IMG/VR virus record: IMGVR_UViG_3300042549_004104 | Location: 263,353-327,352 of that record | Source: a virus | Lineage: Duplodnaviria > Heunggongvirae > Uroviricota > Caudoviricetes | Direction: 5' to 3' (one strand) | DNA length: 64,000 bases | Part shown: piece after piece, positions 3,846-61,525 of the stretch | How the letters are laid out: each line of letters starts with the position of its first letter | How positions within the stretch are numbered: the stretch's first letter is position 1 | Program-made: the position numbers and the translations under genes | The notes under the pieces: model-generated | Seen by the model: the letters and a program-made list of their open reading frames with translations, nothing else | The model's database searches: none | Told to the model about the DNA's origin: nothing

Positions 3846-4580
3846 ATGGCAACTTGGAAATTATCAACATACTGGAAGAAAAGTTCAATTGAACGACAGA
3901 TTTGGGTAAAGGATGATAAAGTAATTATCCGTGAAGAAGGTTATCGCTGGGGTACATTCTATGTTCAATCTGATGAACGTCCTCTTACTGATGAAGAATT
4001 AATCAATAAGCATGGGTATGAACTTGGTTGTTTAGACAATGATGAGTGTTGGGAACTAGATAACTTAGATGATGGCTGTTGGGCTGATAATGAAGCAGGT
4101 AGAAATTGTACTGAGGAAGACTTAGAGGCATTTGAAGAAGCCTGGGAAGAAAATTCTTATGAAGGTGTTGAAGAATTAGGTTGGTCTAATGATGACACTG
4201 AGTTTGAATTTCAAGGACCATTAGTGTTGACTAATGAAGATACTGGTGAAGAATTTAATGGTGAGACTATTAAAGAGTCAATGCCAGAAAAAGTAGTAGT
4301 TGAACATAAACCACTAAGTACTACGGCAGCTTGGCCCTTTGGTGATTCAACAGATAAACACATTGAACTTGATCCAGCTAAATGGCCCTCTCCAAATGGT
4401 AATTTTGTAGAAACAGCTAAATGGCCCTTTGATAAATCATCAGAAATTTCTAGCATGAAGTGTACAGAATGTGATTGGACTGGTGATTGGACTGAGACAA
4501 ATAGTAAAGAAATTGATGGGGTAGAATTTGATACTTGTCCTGTATGCAATGGAATAGTTGAAGATAAAGAGGAAGAATAA
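3846..4580 (+). CDS. highly acidic protein with internal AKWP repeats and a C-terminal zinc ribbon (CTECDW...CPVCNG); paralog of 32821-33369
   Basis: Strong AAGGA SD. D/E-rich composition. CxxC...CxxC at the C-terminus. Confidence 0.55.
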   Translation: MATWKLSTYWKKSSIERQIWVKDDKVIIREEGYRWGTFYVQSDERPLTDEELINKHGYELGCLDNDECWELDNLDDGCWADNEAGRNCTEEDLEAFEEAWEENSYEGVEELGWSNDDTEFEFQGPLVLTNEDTGEEFNGETIKESMPEKVVVEHKPLSTTAAWPFGDSTDKHIELDPAKWPSPNGNFVETAKWPFDKSSEISSMKCTECDWTGDWTETNSKEIDGVEFDTCPVCNGIVEDKEEE

Positions 4581-4991: not shown

Positions 4992-5015
4992 TTGTGCAAC
5001 ACAAAGGTTGCACAA
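4992..5015. promoter_or_regulatory. perfect 9-bp inverted repeat (ttgtgcaac-acaaag-gttgcacaa) immediately upstream of folE
   Basis: Palindrome read directly in the sequence. No U-tract follows it. It may be an operator or an RNA hairpin. Confidence 0.4.
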
Positions 5016-5050
5016 TGTCAAAACAAAACACTCACAACGGAGGGTTATCT

Positions 5051-5725
5051 ATGAGTTATAATAAGACAAAAACTGATCCTGAATTAGGATTAAAAGTACA
5101 CGAACATCTAGTCAAGATGGGTGTTGAAACGCCAACCAAACCTGATACTAGGGACCGTAAAGACAAAATTGAATTGATTGAAAGTTATTTTGAAGGCATC
5201 ATGATGGCTTTGGGCCTAGACCTAAGTGATGATAGCTTAATGGACACACCCAAGCGTGTTGCTAAAATGTATGTTAACGAAATTTTCTGGGGATTAGATT
5301 ATGAAGCATTTCCAAAGTGTACGACTGTCGATAACAAGATGCATTACAATGAAATGGTCGTTGAACGCAACGTTAACGTCCAAAGTAATTGCGAACATCA
5401 CTTTGTTGTTATTGATGGGTTGGCTACAGTGGCTTATGTTCCGAAACAAAGAGTCCTCGGACTATCAAAAATTAACCGTATTGTTGAGTATTTCAGCAAA
5501 CGCCCTCAAATCCAAGAGCGACTCACAGAACAAATCTTCCACACTCTCCAATTTATACTGGAGACTGAAGATGTTGCGGTAATGATTGATGCACAACATT
5601 ATTGTGTAAAGTCACGTGGTGTAGAAGATACTGGTAGTAGTACAGTTACAAGTCGTTTAGGTGGTGGGTTCAAAAATGACCCAGCGGCACGTGCTGAGTT
5701 CTATCAAATTGCGAGACAGAAATGA
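5051..5725 (+). CDS. folE: GTP cyclohydrolase I (FolE)
   Basis: Near-identical core to E. coli FolE: CEHHFVVIDG, VLGLSKINRIVEYFSKRPQIQERLTEQI, DAQHYCVKSRG. Start chosen at MSYNKTK because it has a GGAGG SD. The ORF track extends to a GTG at 4994 that lies inside the palindrome. Confidence 0.93.
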   Translation: MSYNKTKTDPELGLKVHEHLVKMGVETPTKPDTRDRKDKIELIESYFEGIMMALGLDLSDDSLMDTPKRVAKMYVNEIFWGLDYEAFPKCTTVDNKMHYNEMVVERNVNVQSNCEHHFVVIDGLATVAYVPKQRVLGLSKINRIVEYFSKRPQIQERLTEQIFHTLQFILETEDVAVMIDAQHYCVKSRGVEDTGSSTVTSRLGGGFKNDPAARAEFYQIARQK

Positions 5726-5940
5726 ATCCAAAGATTAAGGCATTAGAACAACAATGCTGGAGTCATCGTGTAGACGGAGTATTAGTAGATGGTCACTTGC
5801 ATTTTGATACGGCAAAGTTTGCTGAATTGATTGTTAAAGAATGTATCCATGCATGTGTTGCTGACATAGCAGATCCTAGAGATACAATCGAATTTAAATG
5901 TGCAAAGAAAATTAAAGAACATTTTGGAGTTAAAGAATGA
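5722..5940 (+). CDS. HFGVEE-family small protein (paralog 1 of 5)
   Basis: MNxKIKALE N-terminus, KFAELIVKEC core and C-terminal KEHFGVKE. ATGA-coupled to folE. Confidence 0.6.
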   Translation: MNPKIKALEQQCWSHRVDGVLVDGHLHFDTAKFAELIVKECIHACVADIADPRDTIEFKCAKKIKEHFGVKE

Positions 5941-6173
5941 ACGAGAAACTTAGAGAATTTGCTTTAGAAGCAGGCGGCAGTCACTATCCTGAAGTAAATC
6001 CAATGCAATTAAAAAAGTTTGCCGAGTTGATTATTCGTGAATGTGCTGATATTATCAATCATCGTGCTGACACATGCAGTGATTGGTTAGATAGTGTCAA
6101 GGCAAATGAAGCAGTCCGTGAAGGACAAAGAGAGTGTGCTAAAACGATCAAAGAACATTTCGGAGTTGAATAA
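5937..6173 (+). CDS. HFGVEE-family small protein (paralog 2 of 5)
   Basis: KFAELIIREC core and C-terminal KEHFGVE. ATGA-coupled. Confidence 0.6.
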   Translation: MNEKLREFALEAGGSHYPEVNPMQLKKFAELIIRECADIINHRADTCSDWLDSVKANEAVREGQRECAKTIKEHFGVE

Positions 6174-6282
6174 TGATCGATATTATCACATTAATTTGTT
6201 TAATAATAGTTGCTTGGTATATAGCGGGCAAGCTACCAAAAAGTAATTGCAACGGTGATTGCCAACAAGGTCGTAACTGCAC

Positions 6283-6558
6283 GTGCAAATGACAAACCGT
6301 TCACCTTTCAGGAATCAAGAAGAAGCGTTTGCCTTTCTAAGAAAGATAGGCATGAAAAATCGCAGAACACTAACTGGAATTGAACGTGAACACATGTTGT
6401 TAGTATTTGCATTGATTGACCCAATTGAATCTAGCAACAATCAACGAACATTTAGTGAAACTTATCATCATGTCGGTAAAGAATATGAAGTTACATATGG
6501 GTTCAGTGACTCGGGTGAACCCGACCCAATAGTAGAAGAATTGACGGAGTTAGAATGA
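6283..6558 (+). CDS. hypothetical protein
   Basis: ORF only; weak ribosome-binding site. Confidence 0.35.
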   Translation: MQMTNRSPFRNQEEAFAFLRKIGMKNRRTLTGIEREHMLLVFALIDPIESSNNQRTFSETYHHVGKEYEVTYGFSDSGEPDPIVEELTELE

Positions 6559-6765
6559 AACTATATAAGCACAGCAACGGTAAGACACATTTTTTCCCAG
6601 AAGTAATTCCTAAGGGATGGGAAGTTATGTTAAGACCAGATACTTTTGAAGTTGTGTGGCGTAAAATTAGGGGCAGAGAATGAAGGGCTATTATTGTGTA
6701 AAGTGTTTTGGACCGTTTGCTCGTTATCGACAAAACGGTTTGTGGCAGACTAATCATAGGTGCGG

Positions 6766-7236
6766 ATGATGATATTCAATAAGATTAAAGAACTTAAAGA
6801 ACGTGGATTGATTATTGGTATTACCTTTAGTCAATTTGACTTGTTACATGCCGGTCATATTGCAATGCTAAGTGAAGCAAAGAATCACTGTGATTATTTG
6901 ATTGCTGGATTGCAAAACAATGCACAATGGGATAGACCAGAAAAGAATGAACCAATTCAAAGTATTGTAGAACGACAAATAAGTTTGTGTGCGGTACGCA
7001 CAGTAGACGAGATTGTTATCTATAACACAGAGAAGGATTTATCTGACATTCTATTAACACTACCCATTGATGTGCGTATACTAGGTGTTGAATACGCAGA
7101 CAAAGATTTCAGTGGTAAAGAAATCTGTGAAAAACGCAACATTAAAATTATCTATAATGGGCGTGACCATAGTTTTAGTAGCAGTAGCCTACGAAAGAGA
7201 ATTTTGGAAGCCGAACAACAAAAACAAAAGTGGTAA
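6766..7236 (+). CDS. cytidylyltransferase-like nucleotidyltransferase (TagD/RfaE-domain-II-like; HxGH motif)
   Basis: FDLLHAGH (HIGH) motif 20 aa from the N-terminus and about 155 aa long, matching glycerol-3-phosphate cytidylyltransferase and ADP-heptose synthase adenylyltransferase domains. The ORF track starts at a GTG at 6760; the ATG at 6766 is more likely. Confidence 0.7.
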   Translation: MMIFNKIKELKERGLIIGITFSQFDLLHAGHIAMLSEAKNHCDYLIAGLQNNAQWDRPEKNEPIQSIVERQISLCAVRTVDEIVIYNTEKDLSDILLTLPIDVRILGVEYADKDFSGKEICEKRNIKIIYNGRDHSFSSSSLRKRILEAEQQKQKW

Positions 7237-7315: not shown

Positions 7316-7879
7316 ATGGCAAACTCATCAACAAATGACTTAATACGTCACCTAGAAGAAAACTTTCAGTCACATCGCTGGAATTCAGCAAGACAATATA
7401 AATTCACAAGTACAAAAGAATATCACGATGCATTTCCATGTGCATATCGTCAATGGCGTGCAGACAGTCATTGCAATATGATTCATGGTTATAGTTTCAG
7501 TATGAAATTCTATTTCGGTACAGACAGTTTAGATGTACGTAACTGGGCGGCTGACTATGGTGGATTAAAAGAATTGAAAAAGATTCTTGAGGATCAATTC
7601 GACCACACCTTGTTAGTAGCACAAGATGATCCAGAACTTGAAACATTCAAAATGTTACAAGAAAAGAAATTGGCTAAGTTAACTATTCTACCACGAATCG
7701 GGTGCGAGAGTTTAGCCGACATGCTTTACAAATATGTCAATGGAGTGTATATTCCAGATATGTGGGGTCAAGGTGAGTCTGACCGTCTATGGTGTTATCG
7801 TGTTGAAGTACGTGAGACACAAGCAAACATGGCTTTCAGAGAAGGTCATCGTGAATGGAATGAAGATTTATTTGCATGA
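7316..7879 (+). CDS. queD: 6-carboxytetrahydropterin synthase-like (QueD/PTPS T-fold)
   Basis: AGGAGA SD. CNMIHGYSF resembles the QueD CxxxHGH zinc site, with one His replaced by Tyr. DHTLL and GCESLADML match downstream QueD/PTPS blocks. Confidence 0.7.
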   Translation: MANSSTNDLIRHLEENFQSHRWNSARQYKFTSTKEYHDAFPCAYRQWRADSHCNMIHGYSFSMKFYFGTDSLDVRNWAADYGGLKELKKILEDQFDHTLLVAQDDPELETFKMLQEKKLAKLTILPRIGCESLADMLYKYVNGVYIPDMWGQGESDRLWCYRVEVRETQANMAFREGHREWNEDLFA

Positions 7880-8112
7880 GTCCTGAACAACGAATCAAAG
7901 CTGCCGAAGAATGGGCTCAACTAAGAGTAGAGGCCGCAGAGCGTGAGCGTGATGAGGCATTGGGCTTAGTTAGTGCGGCACACTTAGAATTGATACATAG
8001 CATCAAGTATGGATTCAATCCTGGTACTGCACATAGCACACTAATTAGTGTGGGTAGATTAAGCCCAATGTTACAAGCAAGAATGAAACGAATGTTAGAA
8101 GAAAAAGAATGA
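7876..8112 (+). CDS. hypothetical protein
   Basis: ATGA-coupled ORF. Confidence 0.4.
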   Translation: MSPEQRIKAAEEWAQLRVEAAERERDEALGLVSAAHLELIHSIKYGFNPGTAHSTLISVGRLSPMLQARMKRMLEEKE

Positions 8113-8621
8113 GTAGCATAGAAAAGAATGATTTGTTTATGATTACATGTAATAATGTATTGCCTTCGTACGGTGAATTTAAAAAAATTATTGACTATGA
8201 AATAGAATATCACCTATATCAAACTGTTCCAAAATATCAATCTTATCCATTCATGCACGAAAAATATTATCATAATGAACTGTTAACTACGTTAATAAAT
8301 TTTACTTTAGACACCTTAAGAAAAAATAATAAATCAGATTTATTTCTAAAATTTTGTTGGTTTAATGTTTGTAAACAAGATTCAGAGTTTCAATGGCATA
8401 CTCATCCAACATCAAACGTATCCGCTATTTATTTTATGGATGGTTGTGAAGATAATGGTACCATACTTGACTATAACGGGACTATATTTCAAATTTTACC
8501 AAAAGAAAATAGTTTATTTATTTTTAATTCAACCATTTCTCATACTATACCAACTTGGAAAAATAAAAATAGATATTCTATTGCCTTAGAATTTCTACCA
8601 AATAAAACAATTAATAATTAA
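8109..8621 (+). CDS. hypothetical protein; possibly a double-stranded beta-helix or oxygenase-like protein
   Basis: ATGA-coupled. His-rich patches (WHTHPTS, ISHTIP). Assignment is weak. Confidence 0.45.
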   Translation: MSSIEKNDLFMITCNNVLPSYGEFKKIIDYEIEYHLYQTVPKYQSYPFMHEKYYHNELLTTLINFTLDTLRKNNKSDLFLKFCWFNVCKQDSEFQWHTHPTSNVSAIYFMDGCEDNGTILDYNGTIFQILPKENSLFIFNSTISHTIPTWKNKNRYSIALEFLPNKTINN

Positions 8622-8804: not shown

Positions 8805-9647
8805 ATGAATAAACTAAAAATATCAGAACTGTTTTACAGTGTACAAGGTGAAGGAAGATACATGGGTGTGCCAAGCGTGTTCTTACGCACGTTTGGTTGT
8901 AACTTTAAATGTGCTGGCTTCGGTATGTCTAAAGGAATGGAAAGTACAGAAAGGTTTAAAATAAATGCAGAAACTATTAAATCTTATAAATCACTACCAC
9001 TTGTTAGTACTGGATGTGATAGCTATGCGAGTTGGGATCCACGCTTCAAACATCTCAGTCCTTATTACGACATTGATACTATTGCCGATAATATTGTCAA
9101 TTTACTTCCTCATGGTCGTTGGAAAGATGAGCACTTGGTTATTACGGGTGGTGAGCCGCTCTTAGGCTGGCAACGTGAATATCCAGAGTTGTTATCACAT
9201 GATAATATGCGTGGATTACAAGAAATAACATTTGAAACTAATGGTACACAAATGTTATATCCTGAATTAGTTAATTATTTAAATGAATGGAAGAAACACC
9301 GCTATTTACATTGTCTAACATTCAGCGTAAGTCCTAAACTAAGTATCAGTGGTGAAAATTGGGAAGATGCTATTTGTCCCGATGTTGTTCAACAATATTA
9401 CAATACTGGTTATACTTATTTGAAATTTGTTGTAGCAACTAAAGAAGATGCAGAAGAAGCTGAACAAGCAGTTAATGAATATCGCAAACGTGGATTTAAA
9501 GGTCCTGTGTATCTTATGCCTTGCGGTGGTGTTACAGAACTTTATAATCTTAATAACAGAAAAGTTGCAGAACTTGCAATGCAAAAGGGTTGGCGCTATA
9601 GTGACAGACTACAAGTCCCGTTGTTCAAAAACGAATGGGGAACTTGA
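8805..9647 (+). CDS. queE: 7-carboxy-7-deazaguanine synthase-like radical-SAM protein (QueE family)
   Basis: The N-terminal ELFYSVQGEGRYMGVPSVFLRTFGCNFKC aligns with QueE (E.F.S.QGEG..G.P..F.R..GC...C), and VITGGEPLL matches the SAM-binding GGEP block. The third Cys of the canonical Cx3Cx2C is not in the usual place, so this is a divergent QueE. Confidence 0.7.
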   Translation: MNKLKISELFYSVQGEGRYMGVPSVFLRTFGCNFKCAGFGMSKGMESTERFKINAETIKSYKSLPLVSTGCDSYASWDPRFKHLSPYYDIDTIADNIVNLLPHGRWKDEHLVITGGEPLLGWQREYPELLSHDNMRGLQEITFETNGTQMLYPELVNYLNEWKKHRYLHCLTFSVSPKLSISGENWEDAICPDVVQQYYNTGYTYLKFVVATKEDAEEAEQAVNEYRKRGFKGPVYLMPCGGVTELYNLNNRKVAELAMQKGWRYSDRLQVPLFKNEWGT

Positions 9648-15870: not shown

Positions 15871-16276
15871 CAAATTAAAGAACTTATTCAAGAAAACAGA
15901 AAAGCCTGTTGAATCTAAGAAGCCAACTAAAGCAAAAACTAAGGCTCCAACTAAAGAATTAAGTCTTAAAGAAAAAGCAACACAAGCCGGGGAACCCTAC
16001 ATCAATATTTTAAGTTTAGATATTGATCCCAAAGATATCAACAGCGGTGCATTTGATTTAGACTTTAATGAAATTTTTGTAGCAAGATTAGTCAAAGCTG
16101 GTTACATGATGAGTAAGGATGACAAGGATACTGATATCGTAGATAGATGGTTCCAGCAAGTTTGTAGAAATGTAGTACTTGAGATGTATGAGCAAGTACA
16201 AGCGGATCCCATGAACCGTGACATTCGCCCTATCCAATCACGTGACCTTGGCAATGGACGTACAGAGGTGAGTTAA
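15863..16276 (+). CDS. hypothetical protein with a Lys-rich N-terminus
   Basis: ORF overlapping the uvdE stop. Confidence 0.45.
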   Translation: MFDKLKNLFKKTEKPVESKKPTKAKTKAPTKELSLKEKATQAGEPYINILSLDIDPKDINSGAFDLDFNEIFVARLVKAGYMMSKDDKDTDIVDRWFQQVCRNVVLEMYEQVQADPMNRDIRPIQSRDLGNGRTEVS

Positions 16277-17640
16277 TGATTGGATGGCCAGTACCTCCTA
16301 CTAATTTAAAATATTCTAAATGGTATGACTCGCTAATTAACAAGGCTTTACAAAGAAGCCTACCATTAACTATGTATACAGAACAACACCATATTGTTCC
16401 TAGAAGTTTTGGTGGCAGTGATGACATATCTAATCTAGTTAAACTTACAGCAAGAGAACATTATGTAGCGCATTTATTATTATGGAAGATACGCTTTCCT
16501 AGTGTATACGGTAGTAAAATGTCTTTTGCTTTTGGAACATTTGTTAACAGATTTAAACAAGAATATCATTCCTCATATAAGATAACAAGTAGGATTTATG
16601 CACAATTTAAAAAAGAATATTCTCTGTTGATGAGTGAGCGAATGTCAGGAGAAGGTAATCACTTCTTTGGCAAGACACATTCAGAAGAAACAAGACGAAT
16701 CATAGGTGAAAAGAGCAAGCAAAAGATTTTTAAAAAGGGACCAGAGAATCCAAATTGGGGTAAAAAACAAAATCTTTCTGATGAACAACGTAAAAAGAGA
16801 AGTGAAGGATCCAAAACTAGATGGGGGAACGATGAGTTCCGCAAAAAGATATTAACATCAAGAAAGCTATATTGGGAATCCGAAGAAGGTAGAGTAAGAG
16901 CTAACATATGGGCTGAAGGGCTTCGAGGAGTTAAACTTGATCCAGAACGTGTTGAAAAATCTGCAAGTAAAAAACGAGGGAAAAAAGGCACTGAAATATT
17001 TTCAGAACAAGCATTAGCTAATATACGTGAGGCTAACAAACATAGGATATATTCTGAAGAAGGTTTGGCAAAAATACGAGAGAGTTCAAGAAAAGTTGGA
17101 CAACGCCTCAAGTCAGAAGAACATAAGAAAAGAATTTCAGAATCAAATAAAGGCAAACACAATAATAAAGGTGAAAAAAATCCTATGTTTGGTAAGAAAC
17201 ATTCACCTGAAACAATAGCTAAAATAAAGGAAACAAAAAGAATATCTGCATTGAAAAATGCAAAGCCTAAATTTGTAGGTCCTTTGAAACCCAAAAACAT
17301 GATTACTTTTAGAGGAGTAAATTATGCTAGTATCAAAAAAGCAAGTTCGCATTTCGGTATACCAGTTGGAAAAATAAAAACACAGATAAAACATTGGGGG
17401 GAGAATCCAGACGCAGAAACAATCGCAAAGATTGATTCCGGAAAACTGAAACCACCTATGACAGCCTGGAATAAAGGTAGTATTGGATTGCAAGTTAGTT
17501 GGAATAAAGGTATGGAGGCACCTAAGTTTACATGTGAACATTGTGGTAAGATAGTAGGTGGAAAAACCAATTATATTAGGTATCACCATGATAATTGTAA
17601 ACTAAAAGTATTCACTTTATTGTCAACAAAAAAAGGTTGA
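16276..17640 (+). CDS. HNH homing endonuclease with repeated NUMOD3-like DNA-binding modules
   Basis: HHIVPRSFGGSDDISNLVKLTAREHYVAH HNH motif. At least 6 repeats of the GxxNPxxGKKHSxETxxKI type follow, as in T4 Mob and I-Hmu-type homing endonucleases. Confidence 0.8.
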   Translation: MIGWPVPPTNLKYSKWYDSLINKALQRSLPLTMYTEQHHIVPRSFGGSDDISNLVKLTAREHYVAHLLLWKIRFPSVYGSKMSFAFGTFVNRFKQEYHSSYKITSRIYAQFKKEYSLLMSERMSGEGNHFFGKTHSEETRRIIGEKSKQKIFKKGPENPNWGKKQNLSDEQRKKRSEGSKTRWGNDEFRKKILTSRKLYWESEEGRVRANIWAEGLRGVKLDPERVEKSASKKRGKKGTEIFSEQALANIREANKHRIYSEEGLAKIRESSRKVGQRLKSEEHKKRISESNKGKHNNKGEKNPMFGKKHSPETIAKIKETKRISALKNAKPKFVGPLKPKNMITFRGVNYASIKKASSHFGIPVGKIKTQIKHWGENPDAETIAKIDSGKLKPPMTAWNKGSIGLQVSWNKGMEAPKFTCEHCGKIVGGKTNYIRYHHDNCKLKVFTLLSTKKG

Positions 17641-27711: not shown

Positions 27712-28266
27712 GTGATGAGTTTGTTTATTGTGGTTATTATTTTAACATTCTTAAGCCTTGCTATCACAGCCCTTTGCGGTATAAAGTATATTCATCCTAG
27801 TGCCCATCTTGGATTTAACGTTACTGAAAAATCAAAATTAGTACATCTTGCAAGATTCTGGTGGTGGTTAGTAACAGGATTAAATTTAAAAGAATATTCA
27901 GCCATACATAGACACAATCACGCACATTCTATGACAAAATGGGAAGATGGGATTCCACCTGATAGTGTTTTAGTACGTGCTAAAATGTTTATAGAACAAC
28001 GGCGTAATAAAAATCTTATAGAAGATTATGGTATTGAATCTCCGAACACATGGATAGATATTAACCTATATCAACGATATCATTACTTGGGTCCTGTAGT
28101 TTATTTGTTGTTATTACTATCAGTCTTAGGCACACCGGGATTTATTGTATGGATAGCACAATCAATATTCATTGTATTTTTATGTTCAGAATCTGTCAAT
28201 GCAGATAGAGATTTTTGTAGTAGTGAATTGTTAATGTTTTTGAAAACCAAAAAATATTACGAATAA
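27712..28266 (+). CDS. integral membrane protein (at least 3 TM)
   Basis: Multiple hydrophobic helices. Preceded by a 30-aa hydrophobic mini-ORF at 27619-27711. Confidence 0.5.
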   Translation: MMSLFIVVIILTFLSLAITALCGIKYIHPSAHLGFNVTEKSKLVHLARFWWWLVTGLNLKEYSAIHRHNHAHSMTKWEDGIPPDSVLVRAKMFIEQRRNKNLIEDYGIESPNTWIDINLYQRYHYLGPVVYLLLLLSVLGTPGFIVWIAQSIFIVFLCSESVNADRDFCSSELLMFLKTKKYYE

Positions 28267-28281
28267 TTTAGGAGTTAAAGA

Positions 28282-29619
28282 ATGAGTGCAAGTTGGATTA
28301 ATAAATTAAACGAGAGCGATAGCCGCCTCCACAAAGAAGATGTAATTTTGCAGGCGCTTGAGGCAAGTGTCCTAGGTAGTCGTAATAGTCAGATTTTCTT
28401 GGGCTTTACCAAAGCCTGTTACAACCCTTATGTTACGTTTGGTATTCGTCAAGTGCCCGATACAGTAGGTATAACTGATGCAGAGAATCCTTGGGACGAT
28501 TTTAATGAGTTGATGGTACAACTTAGTCAGCGTAGGTTGACAGGTCATGCCGCACGTGATGCTGTACAAAATATATCTGAACGATTTGATAGTATAGAAT
28601 GGAACACATTTTTAGCTCCAGTATTGCGTAGAGACTTACGTGCCGGTATCAGTGACAAGACAATCAATAAAATTTGTAAAGGTACTGACTATGAAGTGCC
28701 AATCTTTGGTTGTCAACTAGCAACTAATAGTGAAGGTCGCCCTGAGATGAAAGGTATCAAACGTCTTGAACCTAAACTTGATGGCGTTCGTGTATTGTTG
28801 ATGGTTATCCCTGATGAAGAAGGTAACGTTGTTACTATTTGCTTTAGTCGCAATGGTAAACAGTTTGACAACTTTGGTCATATTGAAAATCAAATACGTG
28901 ATAACTTTGTAAAACTTACACACAAAGCCGCAACAAGTAATCTGAGTATGGGCTTTGTAATGGATGGTGAAGTGATTGGTAATACATTCCAAGAACTTAT
29001 GCGTCAAGCACGCCGTAAGACTGATGTGCAAGCAGAGGATAGTGTGTTCAATGTATTTGACATTCTACCACTTGATGCTTTCCGTGAAGGTCATTGGAAT
29101 GCACAACTACACAAACGCATTACTATTTTAGAAGATATGCGTAGTATTATTGATAACATGCCTAACGTTGAATTGTTACCACATATCATGGTTGACTTGG
29201 ATACAGCGGCAGGTAAGGATCAATTAGAGCGATATGCTAAGGATCAAGTTAATCTTGGATTCGAAGGCATTATGATTAAAAACGTAGAAGCCCCATATGT
29301 CTGCAAACGCAGTACAGATTGGATGAAATGGAAACCCACTATCACAGTTGACTTAACTGTTGTTGGTCTTGAAGAAGGTACTGGAAGAAATGCCGGTCGG
29401 CTTGGTGCTCTTGTTTGTGAGGGTGAAGATGACGGTAAAATCATTCAAGTGAATGTGGGTAGTGGATATAGTGATGAGGATCGTAGTGATTATTGGATTA
29501 ACTCTAATAGCATCATTGGTCGTACTGCTGAAATCATGTGTGACGTAATTACTCAAAATCGTGATGGTACTTATAGTTTGCGTTTCCCCCGTTTTGTTAG
29601 ATTTAGGGATGATAAATGA
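28282..29619 (+). CDS. ATP-dependent DNA ligase
   Basis: Nucleotidyltransferase motif I EPKLDGVRVL (KxDGxR), motif IV EGIMIK and motif V DWMKWK. 445 aa, as in phage T4/T7-type ligases. Confidence 0.88.
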   Translation: MSASWINKLNESDSRLHKEDVILQALEASVLGSRNSQIFLGFTKACYNPYVTFGIRQVPDTVGITDAENPWDDFNELMVQLSQRRLTGHAARDAVQNISERFDSIEWNTFLAPVLRRDLRAGISDKTINKICKGTDYEVPIFGCQLATNSEGRPEMKGIKRLEPKLDGVRVLLMVIPDEEGNVVTICFSRNGKQFDNFGHIENQIRDNFVKLTHKAATSNLSMGFVMDGEVIGNTFQELMRQARRKTDVQAEDSVFNVFDILPLDAFREGHWNAQLHKRITILEDMRSIIDNMPNVELLPHIMVDLDTAAGKDQLERYAKDQVNLGFEGIMIKNVEAPYVCKRSTDWMKWKPTITVDLTVVGLEEGTGRNAGRLGALVCEGEDDGKIIQVNVGSGYSDEDRSDYWINSNSIIGRTAEIMCDVITQNRDGTYSLRFPRFVRFRDDK

Positions 29620-29855
29620 ACGATAAATTTAAAATACTGGCTCTGCAGGCCAAAATGGGCACTGCTGACTTTGATGCAGGTAGTTACTATGTTGCCACAC
29701 CAGACCAGATGCAAAAATTCTGCGAGTTGATTATTGCTAAGTGTATCGAGGAAGCAGGTGATCCAGCCGATGGGTTAATTCTAGGCGATACCTGGCACGA
29801 TGGTGTTCGTGCTAGTGTTTGGAGTATTCGACAACATTTCGGAGTTGAAGAATGA
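29616..29855 (+). CDS. HFGVEE-family small protein (paralog 3 of 5)
   Basis: KFCELIIAKC core and C-terminal RQHFGVEE. ATGA-coupled to the ligase gene. Confidence 0.6.
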   Translation: MNDKFKILALQAKMGTADFDAGSYYVATPDQMQKFCELIIAKCIEEAGDPADGLILGDTWHDGVRASVWSIRQHFGVEE

Positions 29856-30061
29856 ACGAAAGAATTAAAGAACTTATTAATGAATCCACCTGCTTCAAAG
29901 AAGGTGATACCGAAGGGAAATACGATATTGAAGTGTTTGACAAAGAAAAGTTCGCCGAGTTGATTGTACGGGACTGTATGCTTATCTGTGAAGATGTTAT
30001 GAAAAAAGATAATTCTGCGCTTGGTTGTTGGAGTGAAATCAAAAGAACATTTCGGAGTTGA
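29852..30061 (+). CDS. HFGVEE-family small protein (paralog 4 of 5); its C-terminus is out of frame relative to the family
   Basis: KFAELIVRDC core. Ends ...EIKRTFRS*, whereas the +1 frame reads KEHFGVEE* up to 30067. There is one extra A in the run atcaaaaga compared with the paralogs. Confidence 0.5.
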   Translation: MNERIKELINESTCFKEGDTEGKYDIEVFDKEKFAELIVRDCMLICEDVMKKDNSALGCWSEIKRTFRS

Positions 30062-30064
30062 AGA

Positions 30065-30364
30065 ATGAATGAACGAATTCGAGAACTTGCTGAACAGGCT
30101 GGAACATACTTTGGAGGAGGAACGACTGATTATTTCGGTGATTATTTGCCTCCGTATGTGTCAATAACTGATCTAGATTTAGAAAAGTTCGCCGAGTTGA
30201 TTGTGCGAGAATTTGTCAGTATCGTGGAAGAAGAAATTAAATTGGTAGAAGAATTCAAATCCACTGCTGTGAAAGCTGATGTGATTAAATGTCATACAAG
30301 TAAAATTTATCATTTTCATAAATTGATTGATAAGAGTAAGAAACATTTCGGAGTTGAAGAATGA
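30065..30364 (+). CDS. HFGVEE-family small protein (paralog 5 of 5)
   Basis: MNERIRELAEQAG N-terminus, KFAELIVREF core and C-terminal KKHFGVEE. Confidence 0.6.
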   Translation: MNERIRELAEQAGTYFGGGTTDYFGDYLPPYVSITDLDLEKFAELIVREFVSIVEEEIKLVEEFKSTAVKADVIKCHTSKIYHFHKLIDKSKKHFGVEE

Positions 30365-30555
30365 TACATTTTAGAACTGATGGTGATACCCTGTACAACG
30401 GTTTAAATATCTATAAATTTTATAAAAGCACTGCGTGGGGATTTGTGTTTAGGTATGGTCCTAGAAACACTCACAATTTAGGAAAAAAGATTTTCATTGT
30501 GCGCTATGATAGAATCAGTCGATTGTTCAACTTGGCCACGTTAGGAGTGGATTGA
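30361..30555 (+). CDS. hypothetical protein
   Basis: ATGA-coupled ORF. Confidence 0.35.
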   Translation: MIHFRTDGDTLYNGLNIYKFYKSTAWGFVFRYGPRNTHNLGKKIFIVRYDRISRLFNLATLGVD

Positions 30556-31111: not shown

Positions 31112-31414
31112 ATGAAAATTTCAATTGTGTTATTAGCATTATTGTGTAGTTTATCTGCCAATGTACAGGCGCAGGATGCAGTGTCAGGCAAGATCAAATA
31201 TACGAGTTGCAGTGCATGTCACGGTGCTCAAGGTCAAGGCGGAGTAGGTCCAAAACTTCAAGGCCAAAAAGCCGAAGCAATTGTGAAAAAACTCACTGCA
31301 TACAAAAACAAACAAAAAGTTGGACCACAGAGTGAATTGATGTGGGGCATGGCCGGTGCACTATCGTCTGATGATATTAAGAATATTGCCGCATACACAG
31401 CCACGCTCAAATAA
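31112..31414 (+). CDS. class I c-type cytochrome (c552/c553-like), secreted
   Basis: Signal peptide MKISIVLLALLCSLSANVQA. A single CSACHG heme-binding CxxCH motif. Downstream Met-containing LMWGMAG is a candidate sixth ligand. 100 aa. Confidence 0.75.
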   Translation: MKISIVLLALLCSLSANVQAQDAVSGKIKYTSCSACHGAQGQGGVGPKLQGQKAEAIVKKLTAYKNKQKVGPQSELMWGMAGALSSDDIKNIAAYTATLK

Positions 31415-31609: not shown

Positions 31610-32404
31610 ATGAAACGTATTTTTACTCTCTCTATTATCGCCGTAGCAATTTTGGCTACTGGTTGTACACGTATTGAAACCGGCGAGGTTGGTGTGCGTA
31701 TTGGCTTTGACCGACAAATCAAGTCCGGTGAATTATTGCCCGGTTCATTCAATCAAACTATGATTGGTGATGTATTAACATTCCCCATCAAGGACGTCAA
31801 TGTGGTGCTTGAAAACATGACACCTGTTGCTAAAGACAATTCAACAATGAAAGACTTTGATGCTGTGGTGGTTTACAACATCAACCCACAACAAGTAAGT
31901 GAGTTGTACGCAACCAAGAACAAGAGTTTCCACGCTGATTTCAAGGGAGACACTTATGTGATGTACAACTACATTGTACAAAATGCTCGAAATGCTATTT
32001 ACAAATCAGCCCGCAAGTATGAAGCATTGGACATGGCAGACAATCGCACTGACATGGAAAACTTTATCAAAGAAGAAATTGCTCGAAATCTTGGTGAAGA
32101 AAAACTAGATGGATCAATCACAATCAGTCAAGTGATGATTCGTAATGTGTTGCCCAGTGACACAGTAGTTGAATCTGCAAACGCATTGGTTCGTAGCAAA
32201 AACGAATTGAAACAGAAAGAAGTTGAAGTTAAAACTGCCGAAGCAGAAAGTCGCAGAATGGCAGCATTGGCTAATAACTCGGGTGCTAGTATTGCATTCA
32301 TGCAAGCACAAGCTATGTTGAATATCTCAGAAGGTATCAAGAACGGTCAAGTACAGACTATTGTAGTTCCTAGCAACTTCAATGCATTAATGATGCCTAA
32401 ATAA
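31610..32404 (+). CDS. lipoprotein (lipobox LATGC), possibly SPFH/band-7-like
   Basis: AAGGAAA SD. Signal peptide with a lipobox. The fold assignment is weak. Confidence 0.55.
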   Translation: MKRIFTLSIIAVAILATGCTRIETGEVGVRIGFDRQIKSGELLPGSFNQTMIGDVLTFPIKDVNVVLENMTPVAKDNSTMKDFDAVVVYNINPQQVSELYATKNKSFHADFKGDTYVMYNYIVQNARNAIYKSARKYEALDMADNRTDMENFIKEEIARNLGEEKLDGSITISQVMIRNVLPSDTVVESANALVRSKNELKQKEVEVKTAEAESRRMAALANNSGASIAFMQAQAMLNISEGIKNGQVQTIVVPSNFNALMMPK

Positions 32405-37184: not shown

Positions 37185-38387
37185 ATGTCCGAAGAAAATA
37201 AACCAATAAATTATTGTAGCTTTTGCAACAACCACAAAGATGCTGTTAAAAAACTAGTAGTCGGTGGTTCTGTTGCTATATGTAGTGATTGCGTTGAATT
37301 ATGCCAAGAACTCATAACTGATGGAGTTGTTGAACCTACAACAAAAGAATCCAATCCAGATTACGATCCAGAGTCCATAAAAGAATACCTAGATCAACAT
37401 GTCATTGGACAAGATGATGCTAAAAAGGTTCTCAGCGTAGCCATTGCTAATCACTATAAACGGATAAATAATCCTCCTAAAGATTTAGAAATACAAAAAG
37501 GCAATGTACTTATTGTAGGTCCGACAGGTAGTGGCAAAACCTTACTTGCAAAGACTGCGGCTAAATATCTTAAAGTGCCCTTCGTTGTAGCTGATGCAAC
37601 TAGTTTAACCGAAGCAGGTTATGTAGGTGATGATGTTGAATCAATGATTAACATGTTGCTCAATGCGGCTAACGGTGATAAAGACTTAGCCGAGCGTGGT
37701 ATCGTATTTGTTGATGAAATTGACAAAATTGCCCGAAAGAGTGAGAGTGTTAGTATAACACGTGATGTATCAGGTGAGGGAGTACAACAAGCATTACTCA
37801 AATTAGTTGAAGGTACAGTATGTCGCATAGCAGGAAGCGGTGGCAGAAAACATCCTGGTGCCGACATGCTTGAAATAAACACAAAAAACATATTATTCAT
37901 TGCAGGCGGGGCTTTTGTTGGATTGAAGGAAGTAATAGGAAATAGATTAAATGGAACAAGTATCGGGTTTCAAGCGGCTATCAAAGATAATAAAAAAGAG
38001 GGTGAACTAAGCAAAGTTACCCCTGATGATTTAACAAAGTACGGAATGATTCCAGAATTCATAGGTAGATTTACTACTACAGTTAGTATTGATGAATTAG
38101 ATAAAGAACAGTTGATTCATATCTTAACCGATGTTAAAAATAATTATATCAGCCAATACAAATATTTGCTTAAATTAGATAATATCGAACTTACATTTAC
38201 CCAAGATGCATTGGAACAAATGGCAGAAAATTCATTAACTCTGAAAACAGGGGCTCGTGGATTGCATACAGAAATTGAGCGAGTATTAATGCCGCATATG
38301 TTCCTCACCAAATCATACCGTCAAAATAACATAAAATTGCTAAATATTAACAAGGAGCAGATTTTAAATCCAAAATCTTTGTTATGA
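37185..38387 (+). CDS. clpX: ClpX AAA+ unfoldase
   Basis: N-terminal C4 zinc-binding domain (CSFCNN...CSDCVELC). Walker A GPTGSGKT. GYVG pore-1 loop. Walker B IVFVDEIDKI. IGF ClpP-docking loop (SIGFQAA). Confidence 0.93.
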   Translation: MSEENKPINYCSFCNNHKDAVKKLVVGGSVAICSDCVELCQELITDGVVEPTTKESNPDYDPESIKEYLDQHVIGQDDAKKVLSVAIANHYKRINNPPKDLEIQKGNVLIVGPTGSGKTLLAKTAAKYLKVPFVVADATSLTEAGYVGDDVESMINMLLNAANGDKDLAERGIVFVDEIDKIARKSESVSITRDVSGEGVQQALLKLVEGTVCRIAGSGGRKHPGADMLEINTKNILFIAGGAFVGLKEVIGNRLNGTSIGFQAAIKDNKKEGELSKVTPDDLTKYGMIPEFIGRFTTTVSIDELDKEQLIHILTDVKNNYISQYKYLLKLDNIELTFTQDALEQMAENSLTLKTGARGLHTEIERVLMPHMFLTKSYRQNNIKLLNINKEQILNPKSLL

Positions 38388-38703: not shown

Positions 38704-40593
38704 ATGAGCAAAGTCATCGGTATCGATTTGGGTACCACAAATTCATGCGTAGCCGTTATTGAGAACGGAATCCCCAAAGTAATTGAAAACAGTGAAGGTG
38801 CTAGAACAACACCAAGTATTGTCGCCTATACAGACGAAATTCTTGTTGGTGCTAGTGCTAAACGTCAAGCAGTTACTAATCCAAAAAACACAATTTATGC
38901 AGCCAAGCGTTTGATCGGTCGTAAATTTACCGAAGAAGCTGTACAAAAAGATATCAACTTGATGCCTTACAAAATTGTTGCTAATGACAACGGTGATGCA
39001 TGGGTTCAAGTAAATGAAGATAAACTAGCACCTCCACAAATCAGTGCAGAAGTCTTACGCAAAATGAAAAAGACTGCGGAAGATTATCTCGGTGAAGAAG
39101 TTACACAAGCAGTTATTACTGTTCCCGCATATTTCAATGATAGTCAAAGACAAGCAACCAAAGACGCAGGACGTATTGCCGGTCTAGAAGTATTGCGTAT
39201 CATTAACGAACCTACAGCAGCCGCATTGGCGTATGGTGTAGATAAACAAGACAAGCGTGACCGTAAAGTTGCAGTGTACGACTTAGGTGGTGGTACATTT
39301 GATGTATCTATCATTGAATTGGCAGATGTTGATGGTGACAAACAAATTGAAGTATTGTCCACAAACGGAGACACATTCTTAGGTGGTGAAGACTTTGACC
39401 AACGAATCATGGATTTCTTGGTTGACGAATTCAAAAAGGATCAAGGCGTTGATTTGACTAAAGATGTGTTAGCATTGCAACGACTTAAAGAAGCCGCAGA
39501 AAAGGCTAAGATTGAGTTGAGTAGTTCAGTACAAACAGATGTTAACTTACCGTACATCACCGCAGATGCAAATGGCCCTAAACATTTGAACGTTAAGTTG
39601 ACACGTAGCAAACTAGAACAACTAGTTGAAGAACTTATCAAACGTAGTATCGAGCCTTGCAAGACAGCAATGAAAGATGCCGGTGTAAGTGCTAGTGACA
39701 TTGACGAAATTATCTTAGTTGGCGGCATGACACGTATGCCTAAGGTACAAGAAGAAGTTGAAAAACTATTCGGCAAAGCACCACGCAAAGATGTTAACCC
39801 TGATGAAGCAGTAGCAGTTGGTGCCGCAGTTCAAGGCGCAGTACTAAGTGGTGAGCGCAAAGACGTATTGTTGCTTGACGTTACTCCATTGAGTTTGGGT
39901 ATTGAAACAATGGGCGGTGTAATGAGCAAATTGATTGCTAAGAACACAACAATTCCAACTAAACAAAGTCAAACATTCAGTACAGCCGAAGATAATCAAC
40001 AAGCAGTTACAATCAAAGTGTTCCAAGGTGAGCGTGAGATTGCAAAATACAATAAAGGTCTAGGTGAATTTAACTTAGATGGTATTGCACCAGCACCCCG
40101 CGGAGTACCTCAGATTGAAGTTACTTTTGATATTGACGCAAATGGTATCATGCATATCAGTGCTAAAGACAAAGGTACGGGCAAAGAAAACAAAATCACT
40201 ATTAAGAGTAATAGTGGTTTGAGCGAAAGTGAAATTCAGCAAATGGTTAAAGATGCTGAGGACAATGCAGAAACAGACAAGAAAGCACGTGAATTGATTG
40301 AAGCACGTAATGGAGCAGAATCAACATTGAATGGCTTCCGTAATGACTTTGAAAAGTACAAAGACCAAGTTACAGAAGAAGAACGTACTAAAGCAGAAGA
40401 AGCATTAAAAGCAGTTGAATATGCGATTCTAGGTGATGACGCAACAGTTATCCAAGAATCTATTCCTAAACTATATGAAGCAATTGGTCCTATCACTAAG
40501 GTTAAACACGATGCTGAAGAAGCAGAGAAGAAACAATCACAAGAAGCAGATGTGGTTGATGCAGAAGTTAAAGAGTCCGCAGAGACTGTTTAA
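38704..40593 (+). CDS. dnaK: DnaK (Hsp70) chaperone
   Basis: [22 protein letters not shown] and [11 protein letters not shown] signatures. Full-length 629 aa with the C-terminal substrate-binding domain. Confidence 0.97.
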
Positions 40594-60973: not shown

Positions 60974-61525
60974 ATGTACGATATTGTAGAGAAAATCAAC
61001 GAATCCCGAACAAAAAAAATAGAGATAGTTAATCTGTCCTACGATCTTTCCGACCTCAATCCAGTACTTAGCAAGAAAACACTAGACTATCACTATGGTG
61101 ATTTAGCCCATGGATACACTACCCGATACAACAAGGGTGAAGGCGACAAAGATTTCAACTATGCAGGCGCTTTTCTGCACAACATTTACTTTCCACAGTT
61201 TCGCAAGATACAAGAAGATAACACTCCTAATGGTCCTGTACTAGGAATCATCAAGCGCAAATACGATTGGTGGAGAGACTTTAAAGAACAATTCAAAATA
61301 GAAGCCATGAAGATACAGGGCAGTGGTTGGATTTATATGAGTTATGACGGTGAGATAAAGACTATTGCTAACCACGAGGTTCGTGATGATATTCTTATTC
61401 TTGTAGACTGGTGGGAACATGCCTGGGCCTTAGACTACCAAGCAGATAAAAAAAGTTACCTAGAAAACACTTGGAAGATAATGAACTGGAGCCACATTAA
61501 CACTAGGTGGGGGAAGAATTTATGA
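60974..61525 (+). CDS. sod: Fe/Mn superoxide dismutase family protein
   Basis: DYHYGDLAHGYTTRYN aligns with EYHYGKHHQTYVTNLN. AGAFLHNIYF aligns with NHTFYW. QGSGWIYM aligns with FGSGWTWL. LILVDWWEHAWALDYQADKKSYLENTWKIMNW aligns with [32 protein letters not shown]. The metal ligands H, H, D and H are all present. Confidence 0.85.
   Translation: MYDIVEKINESRTKKIEIVNLSYDLSDLNPVLSKKTLDYHYGDLAHGYTTRYNKGEGDKDFNYAGAFLHNIYFPQFRKIQEDNTPNGPVLGIIKRKYDWWRDFKEQFKIEAMKIQGSGWIYMSYDGEIKTIANHEVRDDILILVDWWEHAWALDYQADKKSYLENTWKIMNWSHINTRWGKNL

Follow-up and report, generated by a model that had tools for sequence, protein, structure and literature searches.

Conserved DNA linkers separate apparently exchangeable half-gene cassettes in a large family of small phage genes

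Results

Five small genes at two loci

We analysed a 64,000-nucleotide stretch of DNA, called the window below, from a Caudoviricetes record in IMG/VR (IMGVR_UViG_3300042549_004104, positions 263,353 to 327,352). It carries five small genes on the plus strand, two behind folE and three behind a gene for an ATP-dependent DNA ligase, which belong to a family whose gene halves are probably exchanged by recombination at short conserved linkers. The first locus holds A1 (5722-5940, 72 aa) and A2 (5937-6173, 78 aa), and the second B1 (29616-29855, 79 aa), B2 (29852-30061, 69 aa) and B3 (30065-30364, 99 aa). Common to all five are three constant segments only, MNERIKEL…, EKFAELIVREC and IKEHFGVEE*, where the asterisk is the stop codon. 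An initial annotation made from the letters of the window had described the five open reading frames (ORFs) as a paralogue family, and their presence and relatedness were borne out by a five-gene profile searched against 1,231 six-frame fragments of the window, which recovered these five alone (E 2e-35 to 5e-25), with the next fragment at E 1.9. The two genes directly upstream were also correctly named (folE, Pfam GTP_cyclohydroI, E 9e-61; ATP-dependent DNA ligase, E 5e-16).

The stop codon of folE overlaps the start of A1 as ATGA, as do the end of A1 and the start of A2, the ligase stop and the start of B1, and the end of B3 and the start of a non-family ORF of 64 aa. Such an overlap had been claimed for every junction, and is found at five of seven. 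A2 ends in HFGVE-TAA, its stop overlapping a non-family 39-codon ORF (6173-6292) as TAATG, and B2 ends in ...EIKRTFRS*, its stop (30059-30061) lying 3 nt upstream of the B3 ATG. The C-terminal HFGVEE said to be shared by all members is thus shared as nucleotides, but not throughout as peptide. At the other end, the 5' linker of A1 has diverged to MNPKIKAL; an A1-like variant, P0035, has an otherwise identical body and the canonical 5' end MNERIKEL.

In B2 the nucleotides of the 3' cassette are present, but an extra A (AAAAGAACA, near 30041) causes them to be read in an alternative frame. At least 13 contigs, each from independent sampling, code for exactly this 69-aa B2 protein, which makes the sequence genuine and not a sequencing error. 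No indels were found among near-identical B-locus relatives, whose contigs are 99.5-100% identical and differ in gene calls alone. Programmed frameshifting is conceivable but not needed, as unrelated genes use the same alternative frame.

With the conserved termini masked, leave-one-out profiles still recovered each member (E 3e-7 to 2e-3; best non-family match E at least 0.28), so the relationship survived the check that had been proposed to refute it. When EKFAELIVREC was masked too, the N- and C-terminal stretches of the five genes fell to the level of shuffled sequence (all pairs z < 2). Because these variable stretches align no better than shuffled sequence, the five genes are not diverged tandem duplicates.

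Linker DNA and codon use

Each gene is laid out as a 5' linker, a variable N cassette, a central linker, a variable C cassette and a 3' linker. The 5' linker, ATGAACGAACGAATTAAAGAACTTGC…, codes for MNERIKELAEQAG, the central linker, GAAAAGTTCGCCGAGTTGATTGTNCGGGAATGT, for EKFAELIVREC, and the 3' linker, ATTAAAGAACATTTCGGAGTTGAAGAATGA, for IKEHFGVEE*. Position-wise conservation reads ATGAACGAACGAATTaaAgAACTtgctgaacAggCtgg for the 5' linker, gAAAAGTTcGCCGAGTTGATTGT.cggGAATGT for the central linker and aTtaaa.AAcAtttcggaGttGaaGAATGA for the 3' linker, and these profiles put the size of each at ~30-38 nt. In the window the central linkers, all on the plus strand, lie at 5812-5844 in A1 (AKFAELIVKEC), 6012-6044 in A2, 29712-29744 in B1 (QKFCELIIAKC), 29945-29977 in B2 and 30182-30214 in B3. 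The B2 copy holds the exact 20-mer AAGTTCGCCGAGTTGATTGT, which occurs in at least 120 IMG/VR stretches, with eight copies on one contig. Two antisense ORFs, 29812-30042 (minus strand) across B2 and 30142-30264 (minus strand) across B3, both contain …RTINSANFS…; this is the reverse complement of the central linker and so a mirror effect, not evidence of antisense coding.

Codons of invariant residues were compared in 255 unique family genes against the background of the same loci, which range from 35 to 49% GC. They are nearly fixed, and on synonyms avoided elsewhere in these loci: AAG for Lys (92% in linkers, 39% in the background), TTC for Phe (80%, 33%), GCC for Ala (88%, 20%), GAG for Glu (89%, 25%), TTG for Leu (94%, 25%), CTT for Leu (84%, 16%), CGA for Arg (93%, 13%) and GGA for Gly (100%, 21%). 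At synonymous sites the linkers are also more conserved than the cassettes beside them. These codon-level comparisons show that the linkers are conserved as DNA.

A junction cassette at the 3' end

In the 3' linker a Shine-Dalgarno (SD) sequence, GGAG, is followed after 7 nt by an ATG that overlaps the stop codon as ATGA. Its 21-nt cassette, CATTTCGGAGTTGAAGAATGA, has six copies in the window at no more than three mismatches and none in 100 shuffles, upholding the view that C-terminus, SD and start form a repeated junction. On the plus strand, the copies are found at the ends of A1 (5920-5940, two mismatches), A2 (6156-6176, one mismatch, with the TAA stop and TAATG overlap), B1 (29835-29855, exact), B2 (30048-30068, exact, read outside the HFGVEE frame) and B3 (30344-30364, exact). 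The sixth, at 28265-28285 (plus strand; AATTTAGGAGTTAAAGAATGA), is the ribosome-binding site (RBS) of the ligase gene, agrees with the cassette at 18 of 21 positions (three mismatches) and is preceded by a non-family ORF; it may be the footprint of a former or lost family gene, or an RBS of the same type.

Among 225 unique family gene ends, 196 (87%) overlap a downstream ATG, and behind 152 of these 196 the downstream ORF starts unlike a family member. Across 886 kb of loci there are 206 unique cassette copies at no more than two mismatches, all on the plus strand, 22 of which follow non-family ORFs in two frames, ending in …HFGVEE* or …TFRS*. Non-family genes homologous to each other can read the cassette in different frames (…LDLYKKAFGVEE and …LDLYKETFRS; …FTQEHFGVEE and …GVPLFRS), and a third frame is used as well (…KQGRS and …KNISELKNE… in homologous non-family genes). 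Such frame-variant genes lie at L004 5544-5765 against L014 4747-4962, at L082 near 5389 against L012 near 9839, and at L014 3706-3825, L014 5187-5288 and L059 6240-6362, with ends that include …AFGVEE and …ETFRS. Since the cassette is used in several frames and on unrelated genes, the HFGVEE motif is largely what the junction DNA encodes, and B2 is one of the frame variants of the junction.

The cassette differs from the general RBS consensus of the window. No significant RNA structure was detected at the cassette (z -0.3 to +0.5) or in folds of the junctions and the central linker (z -0.3 to +1.7), and no Rfam match was obtained anywhere in the window, which leaves an RNA element unsupported. 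Promoter- and terminator-like sites were no commoner than in shuffled sequence, and none lay at a junction. With its GGAG, 7-nt spacer and stop-overlapping ATG, the 3' linker would couple the translation of any gene behind a family member, which fits the lack of promoter signals and would explain how members are chained behind folE and the ligase gene without promoters of their own.

Gene halves recur in different combinations

A set of 125 proteins, gathered by similarity to the window genes and therefore inflated in its sharing of window modules, resolved into 41 N modules and 23 C modules. The N module of B2 is paired with 15 different C modules, and the C module of A2, the commonest among the retrieved homologues, with 34 different N modules. 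The set contains four complete two-by-two combinations of N and C modules, equivalent to a four-gamete test. A second set, of 483 unique genes from 228 loci, was chosen through the constants alone, and a half was taken as shared at nucleotide identity of at least 80%. Here 67 pairs of genes share the N half only, 47 the C half only and 3 both, while any module is shared by just 2 of 203 within-locus paralogue pairs.

Pairwise BLAST placed the boundaries of sharing at the linkers. Blocks shared by N halves run from about -20 to the central linker and those shared by C halves from the central linker to a few bases beyond the stop, and genes flanking module-sharing pairs are unshared. The shared cassettes differ by 5-15% between the two members of a pair. 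The comparisons show independent assortment of N and C cassettes, with homology that ends inside the linkers.

The clearest single case is a syntenic relative, L230, on a contig of 97,864 bp, in which one gene (protein P0008) is a chimera of the B3 N half and the A2 C half. Positions 3981-4151 of L230 match the window at 30045-30215 (the 5' junction, N cassette and central linker of B3) with 93.0% identity, and positions 4115-4282 match 6009-6176 (the central linker, C cassette and 3' junction of A2) with 94.6%, so that the B3 and A2 central linkers form the right and left edges of the respective blocks. The two blocks overlap only in a 37-nt central linker, the crossover site. Beside the chimera, the L230 backbone (the Band_7 region) is 80-81% identical to the window. 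The P0008 chimera was read on 18 contigs of up to 97,864 bp from many samples. In another protein, P0086, the A2 C cassette stands behind a different N cassette; as the longest recorded contig of P0086, B1, A2 and B3 alike is 359,563 bp, we infer that P0086 lies on the same contig as these three, outside the window.

Cassette-sharing pairs have a synonymous divergence (pS) of ~0.48 and a ratio of nonsynonymous to synonymous divergence (pN/pS) of 0.39 for N and 0.28 for C cassettes, so the cassettes are real, constrained coding sequence. The cassettes, although unrelated between paralogues, are on this evidence shown to be under purifying selection. Some family proteins (P0139 and P0188) have a second central linker, or HFG[IV] in the interior and HFGVEE again at the C-terminus. 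They resemble fusions or read-through products of neighbouring members, which loss of junction stops would be expected to give.

Size and distribution of the family

Among 5.8 billion proteins, at least 7,960 were matched in a profile search, none with a Pfam domain and nearly all unnamed or labelled 'hypothetical protein'. When 1.84 billion representatives of 50%-identity clusters were searched exhaustively with HMMER, 7,618 clusters matched at E ≤1e-3, of which 960 reached E ≤1e-10. Relatives are carried by at least 283 IMG/VR viral contigs of 5 kb to 374 kb. In 80 fetched loci the members always lie on one strand and are often chained end to start, with a median of 3 per locus and a maximum of 10 within 12 kb. 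Among 185,579 species genomes in GTDB only 18 loci were found, on short contigs of metagenome-assembled genomes from several phyla, many named after freshwater lakes, and these are most likely mis-binned phage DNA.

The 50,697 phage records of GenBank gave no match in megablast with 8-kb and 6-kb pieces of the window, and none at E below 3 in tblastn with three family proteins. Junction blastn matched 114 Rheinheimera Barba phages; the match was rejected, as what these phages carry is not a family member but an RBS-like junction (…EHLGGEE*/ATGA) that follows a gene for an unrelated Cys-rich protein. From these searches the family appears confined to uncultured freshwater phages. Scans of the five window proteins against Pfam-A, PHROGs v4 and NCBIfam gave nothing better than E 0.04, and the same scans of 72 family members one by one gave single stray matches only (E at least 0.005). 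A profile search of the PDB with the family gave E of at least 0.22. In the searchable literature the family and its linkers are undescribed: searches by peptide motif gave nothing relevant, and searches by theme gave analogues only.

Predicted fold and possible function

AlphaFold2 modelled A2 (pLDDT, the predicted local distance difference test, 90.7) with helices at residues 3-11, 22-46 and 54-75, and B3 (pLDDT 89.0) with a helix at 3-11, short strands within 15-33 and helices at 39-67 and 71-95. The two models share their helix topology though the proteins have no cassette in common: a short N-terminal helix leads into a long antiparallel helical hairpin. Helix 1 is made by the 5' constant, helix 2 has the central constant at or close to its start, and helix 3 finishes with the 3' constant; between helices 1 and 2 the N cassette forms an insert, and the hairpin has the C cassette as its distal tip. 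Judged by where they stand along the sequence, the three constants would pack together at the base of the hairpin, which suggests a constant scaffold displaying two variable surfaces. Foldseek against the PDB gave a best E of 1.1, and structural neighbours in BFVD were limited to uncharacterised proteins of 'uncultured Caudovirales phage'.

The family is acidic, with a median isoelectric point of 4.9. A zinc or disulphide site formed by Cys and His was considered and rejected, as 73 of 153 genes have no Cys in the C cassette and the Cys of 'REC' is missing from B3. A conserved two-gene system of toxin/immunity type was likewise rejected: the 140 downstream ORFs fall into 118 clusters, and small membrane-type (transmembrane) peptides, which adjoin family genes in other loci too, make up ~16% of upstream and of downstream neighbours alike. 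With low confidence, we would guess at a diversified set of proteins that bind or inhibit variable targets in the host or in competitors, serving host takeover or anti-defence; the acidic isoelectric point and the position of the genes among small accessory ORFs are no more than indirect hints of anti-defence.

Genomic surroundings

The window has a GC content of 36%, with ORFs mostly on the plus strand, and codes for FolE, QueD-like and QueE-like proteins, an HNH-NUMOD3 endonuclease, an exonuclease, HSP70 and a ClpX-like ATPase. Its content suggests the part of a large phage genome devoted to replication and nucleotide metabolism, and exact matches to B1, A2 and B3 occur on contigs of up to 359,563 bp. 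A tRNA search, as a clue to the host, found none.

Behind A2, the 39-codon ORF at 6173-6292 (plus strand; MIDIITLICLIIVAWYIAGKLPKSNCNGDCQQGRNCTCK) codes for one hydrophobic helix and a Cys-rich tail, a membrane-type peptide. Behind B3, the ATGA-coupled 64-aa ORF at 30361-30555 (plus strand) has an apparent homologue, judged by eye, at 6252-6413 of L029, an unrelated IMG/VR contig where it stands directly behind a family member (MIHFRTDGD… in the window, MIHIREEGED… in L029); it may be a recurrent neighbour of the family.

Five metabolic genes on the plus strand, at 4994-5725, 6760-7236, 7316-7879, 8109-8621 and 8805-9647, code in this order for FolE, a cytidylyltransferase-like protein, a PTPS/QueD-like protein, a 2-oxoglutarate-Fe(II) oxygenase and a radical-SAM (QueE-like) protein. 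The group resembles a DNA modification cluster of 7-deazaguanine type that includes extra enzymes, and has the A1-A2 pair in its middle. Just downstream of the B locus are a c-type cytochrome with a signal peptide (31112-31414, plus strand; CxxCH; Pfam Cytochrom_C) and a Band_7/SPFH protein (31610-32404, plus strand), the latter in a region ~81% conserved in L230. The phage carries chaperone-type genes, namely a full-length HSP70/DnaK (38704-40593, plus strand; Pfam E 2e-259) and a neighbouring ATPase (37185-38387, plus strand) whose PHROG matches include ATP-dependent protease and clamp-loader families. A probable lysin of 550 aa (61507-63159, plus strand) combines LysM and glycoside hydrolase 19 (chitinase class I) domains. 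A free-standing homing-type endonuclease with HNH and NUMOD3 domains (16276-17640, plus strand) is not adjacent to family genes, and no link between it and the linkers was found.

Discussion

The initial annotation described a real feature of this genome, but in part wrongly. Its repeated cassette of C-terminus, SD and start stands, and its idea of diversifying accessory proteins fits the data, whereas the 'expanding tandem family' that it saw does not: the masked modules of the five genes are at shuffled level and recur elsewhere in other combinations. New beyond it are the conservation of the linkers at nucleotide level on non-preferred codons, a third, central linker that acts as crossover point, the occurrence of the cassette on unrelated genes in other reading frames, and the size of the family with its restriction to uncultured phages.

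On the comparative evidence, the best explanation is probably linker-mediated homologous recombination that diversifies a repertoire of small proteins. Recombination at the ~30-38-nt linkers, a length within the range usable by recombination systems, would swap whole genes as well as half-genes, among the paralogues of a single genome and from one co-infecting phage to another, through a phage or host recombinase. Such swaps would build up the arrays and a combinatorial repertoire.

Several points weigh against this explanation. The evidence is comparative throughout, is drawn from metagenomes assembled from short reads, and includes no directly observed recombination event. Sharing of window modules is inflated in the protein set by the way it was gathered. 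Fold searches return only generic or designed helical hairpins, and the downstream ORFs, 118 clusters among 140, are mutually unrelated. The linkers show some synonymous variation, so that constraint at the protein level clearly contributes too, and selection on linker DNA or RNA itself, for example as the site of a regulator, could hold the linkers constant.

If the constants were kept for the needs of the protein, an ordinary paralogous family that arose by local tandem duplication and divergence would suffice. The head-to-tail order of members in two loci, the comparable positions of the constants in the predicted fold and the synonymous differences in the window linkers would all agree with this. 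A tandem array would, however, show whole-length similarity with neighbours closest to each other, and within loci nearly all pairs share no module and the variable parts of the five genes are unalignable beyond chance. In addition, linker codons are fixed on non-preferred synonyms in hundreds of otherwise unrelated genes, 114 pairs share a single half against 3 that share both, L230 carries the B3-N/A2-C chimera, and the 3' cassette is found in other frames and on unrelated genes; tandem duplication is thus very improbable. Scarcely credible is an assembly artefact, in which short-read assemblers would have joined genes at repeated 30-nt linkers, even though the related sequences all come from metagenome assemblies and the linkers are repeated many times per genome. 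Linkers are, as we infer, far shorter than typical reads and than the k of 141 implied by several contig names; exact mosaics recur in independent assemblies (P0008 on 18 contigs, B2 on at least 13); and the 5-15% difference between paired cassettes fits separate lineages, not misjoined identical reads. Short linkers and the same mosaics across independent assemblies together make assembly chimeras unlikely.

Two other accounts leave the mosaicism real and differ in its cause. The linkers, chiefly the 3' cassette, could be cis-regulatory RNA or DNA sites that co-regulate small early genes, with recombination as a by-product; T4 RegA, a translational repressor, and RegB, an SD-cleaving RNase, are models for action on an extended RBS. 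The cassette is independent of frame, precedes many unrelated genes and has a cassette-like counterpart before the ligase gene; it is not the general RBS consensus of the genome, and it is unstructured, as an accessible RBS should be. Unexplained on this account are the nucleotides of the central linker, which are conserved just as strongly and have no start codon behind them, and the conservation of the 5' linker downstream of the ATG. As no candidate regulator was identified and neither an Rfam match nor significant RNA structure was found, we consider it unlikely. Alternatively, the genes could be selfish mini-genes that spread into gene junctions by gene conversion through their conserved ends, at no benefit to the phage. 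Copies are very numerous, the phages that carry the family range from 35 to 49% GC, ATGA at both ends would let insertion at an ATGA junction preserve translation of the operon, and cassettes are more similar between relatives (93-95%) than is the backbone (80-81%). Purifying selection on the cassettes (pN/pS 0.28-0.39) and the near absence of module sharing within loci, which points to retained diversity rather than copy-and-paste, speak against such elements, with which no endonuclease or transposase is associated, and they are improbable.

Beyond linker-mediated recombination as such, the linkers may be evolved signals of a dedicated diversification system. This would be a shared pool of thousands of N and C half-gene cassettes in uncultured freshwater phages, an 'immune-repertoire-like' library of binders on one three-helix scaffold, with variable host-defence or surface-independent targets, in which the 3' linker would act as a coupling plug that expresses captured genes at once. 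We regard this extension as speculative, possible though on balance doubtful.

Among phage systems, the family comes closest to the promoter-early stem-loop (PeSL) cassettes found in phages of T4 type (Arbiol et al. 2010, PMC2839356; Comeau et al. 2014, PMC4122927). There, too, short DNA motifs with a role in expression are repeated among small accessory ORFs of large phages and bound exchanged, otherwise unrelated sequence ('modular shuffling'), as do the linkers here; PeSL-associated ORFs are small and non-essential and occur in large lytic phages. PeSLs are intergenic, however, and combine a sigma-70-like early promoter with a terminator stem-loop, whereas the motifs of the present family, an intragenic linker and an SD with overlapping start and stop, lie inside coding sequence and show neither stem-loops nor promoter- or terminator-like sites above chance. 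The exchanged unit can here be half a gene, and PeSL mini-circles have no known counterpart in the family.

For the intragenic linker, polymorphic toxins are closer. In CdiA, the 'VENN' junction is a conserved border between constant and variable parts. C-terminal displacement in Rhs and polymorphic toxin systems (PMC2935791, PMC3482391) is the nearest analogue, in that a conserved coding junction, like the central EKFAELIVREC, serves cassette exchange, and recombination at the border gives combinatorial diversity in a conflict-type gene family. Polymorphic toxins are very large, secreted and bacterial, and an immunity gene travels with the C-terminal cassette; the present proteins are helical, of cytoplasmic type and about 70-100 aa long (69-99 aa in the window), and vary in both halves. 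Homology between genes that share a half ends at the 3' linker, and the unrelated downstream ORFs give no sign of a co-varying immunity gene.

'Boundary' sequences at module junctions were reportedly described in lambdoid phages and mycobacteriophages by Juhala (2000) and Clark (2001). Like the linkers, they are short conserved sites at gene borders proposed to target homologous recombination and so produce mosaicism (for the term, PMC3029335 and PMC3233612). They are sporadic and their role is debated, whereas the linkers are family-wide, repeated hundreds of times, supported at codon level and in one case inside the gene. Cassette-based antigenic variation offers a further comparison. In Neisseria pilE/pilS and Borrelia vlsE, constant sequences flank variable mini-cassettes and gene conversion yields chimeras. 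Such systems (reviewed in PMC2627965) have one expression site and silent donor copies in one genome and switch within a clone, whereas all copies of the present family appear to be expressed and exchange would have taken place on evolutionary time scales. The family also departs from diversity-generating retroelements, as its variable modules differ in length and are unalignable, and no reverse transcriptase domain was found among the window ORFs scanned, a subset of all ORFs. The linker copies are all direct repeats on one strand, arguing against inversion of the shufflon type; no systematic search for a dedicated recombinase was made. What is new here is linker-mediated shuffling inside a very large uncharacterised family, joined with a portable translational-coupling junction.

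For annotation, HFGVEE or TFRS ends on unrelated small proteins are by-products of junction DNA and not evidence of homology. With at least 7,600 clusters at 50% identity, up to about 10 copies within 12 kb of a single phage contig and absence from Pfam, PHROGs and cultured phages, the family accounts for a considerable portion of viral 'dark matter'. For engineering, the junction offers a compact translational-coupling part, and if the proteins are binders on a constant scaffold, they would be a ready-made natural library. Phage mosaicism has been debated as homologous exchange at short conserved sequences or as random illegitimate recombination followed by selection. The family provides hundreds of natural replicates in which breakpoints, linkers and exchanged units are all defined, so crosses and recoding could test this question directly. 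If the linkers are indeed signals of dedicated diversification, the family would be a natural and tractable case of targeted homologous recombination giving mosaicism within genes.

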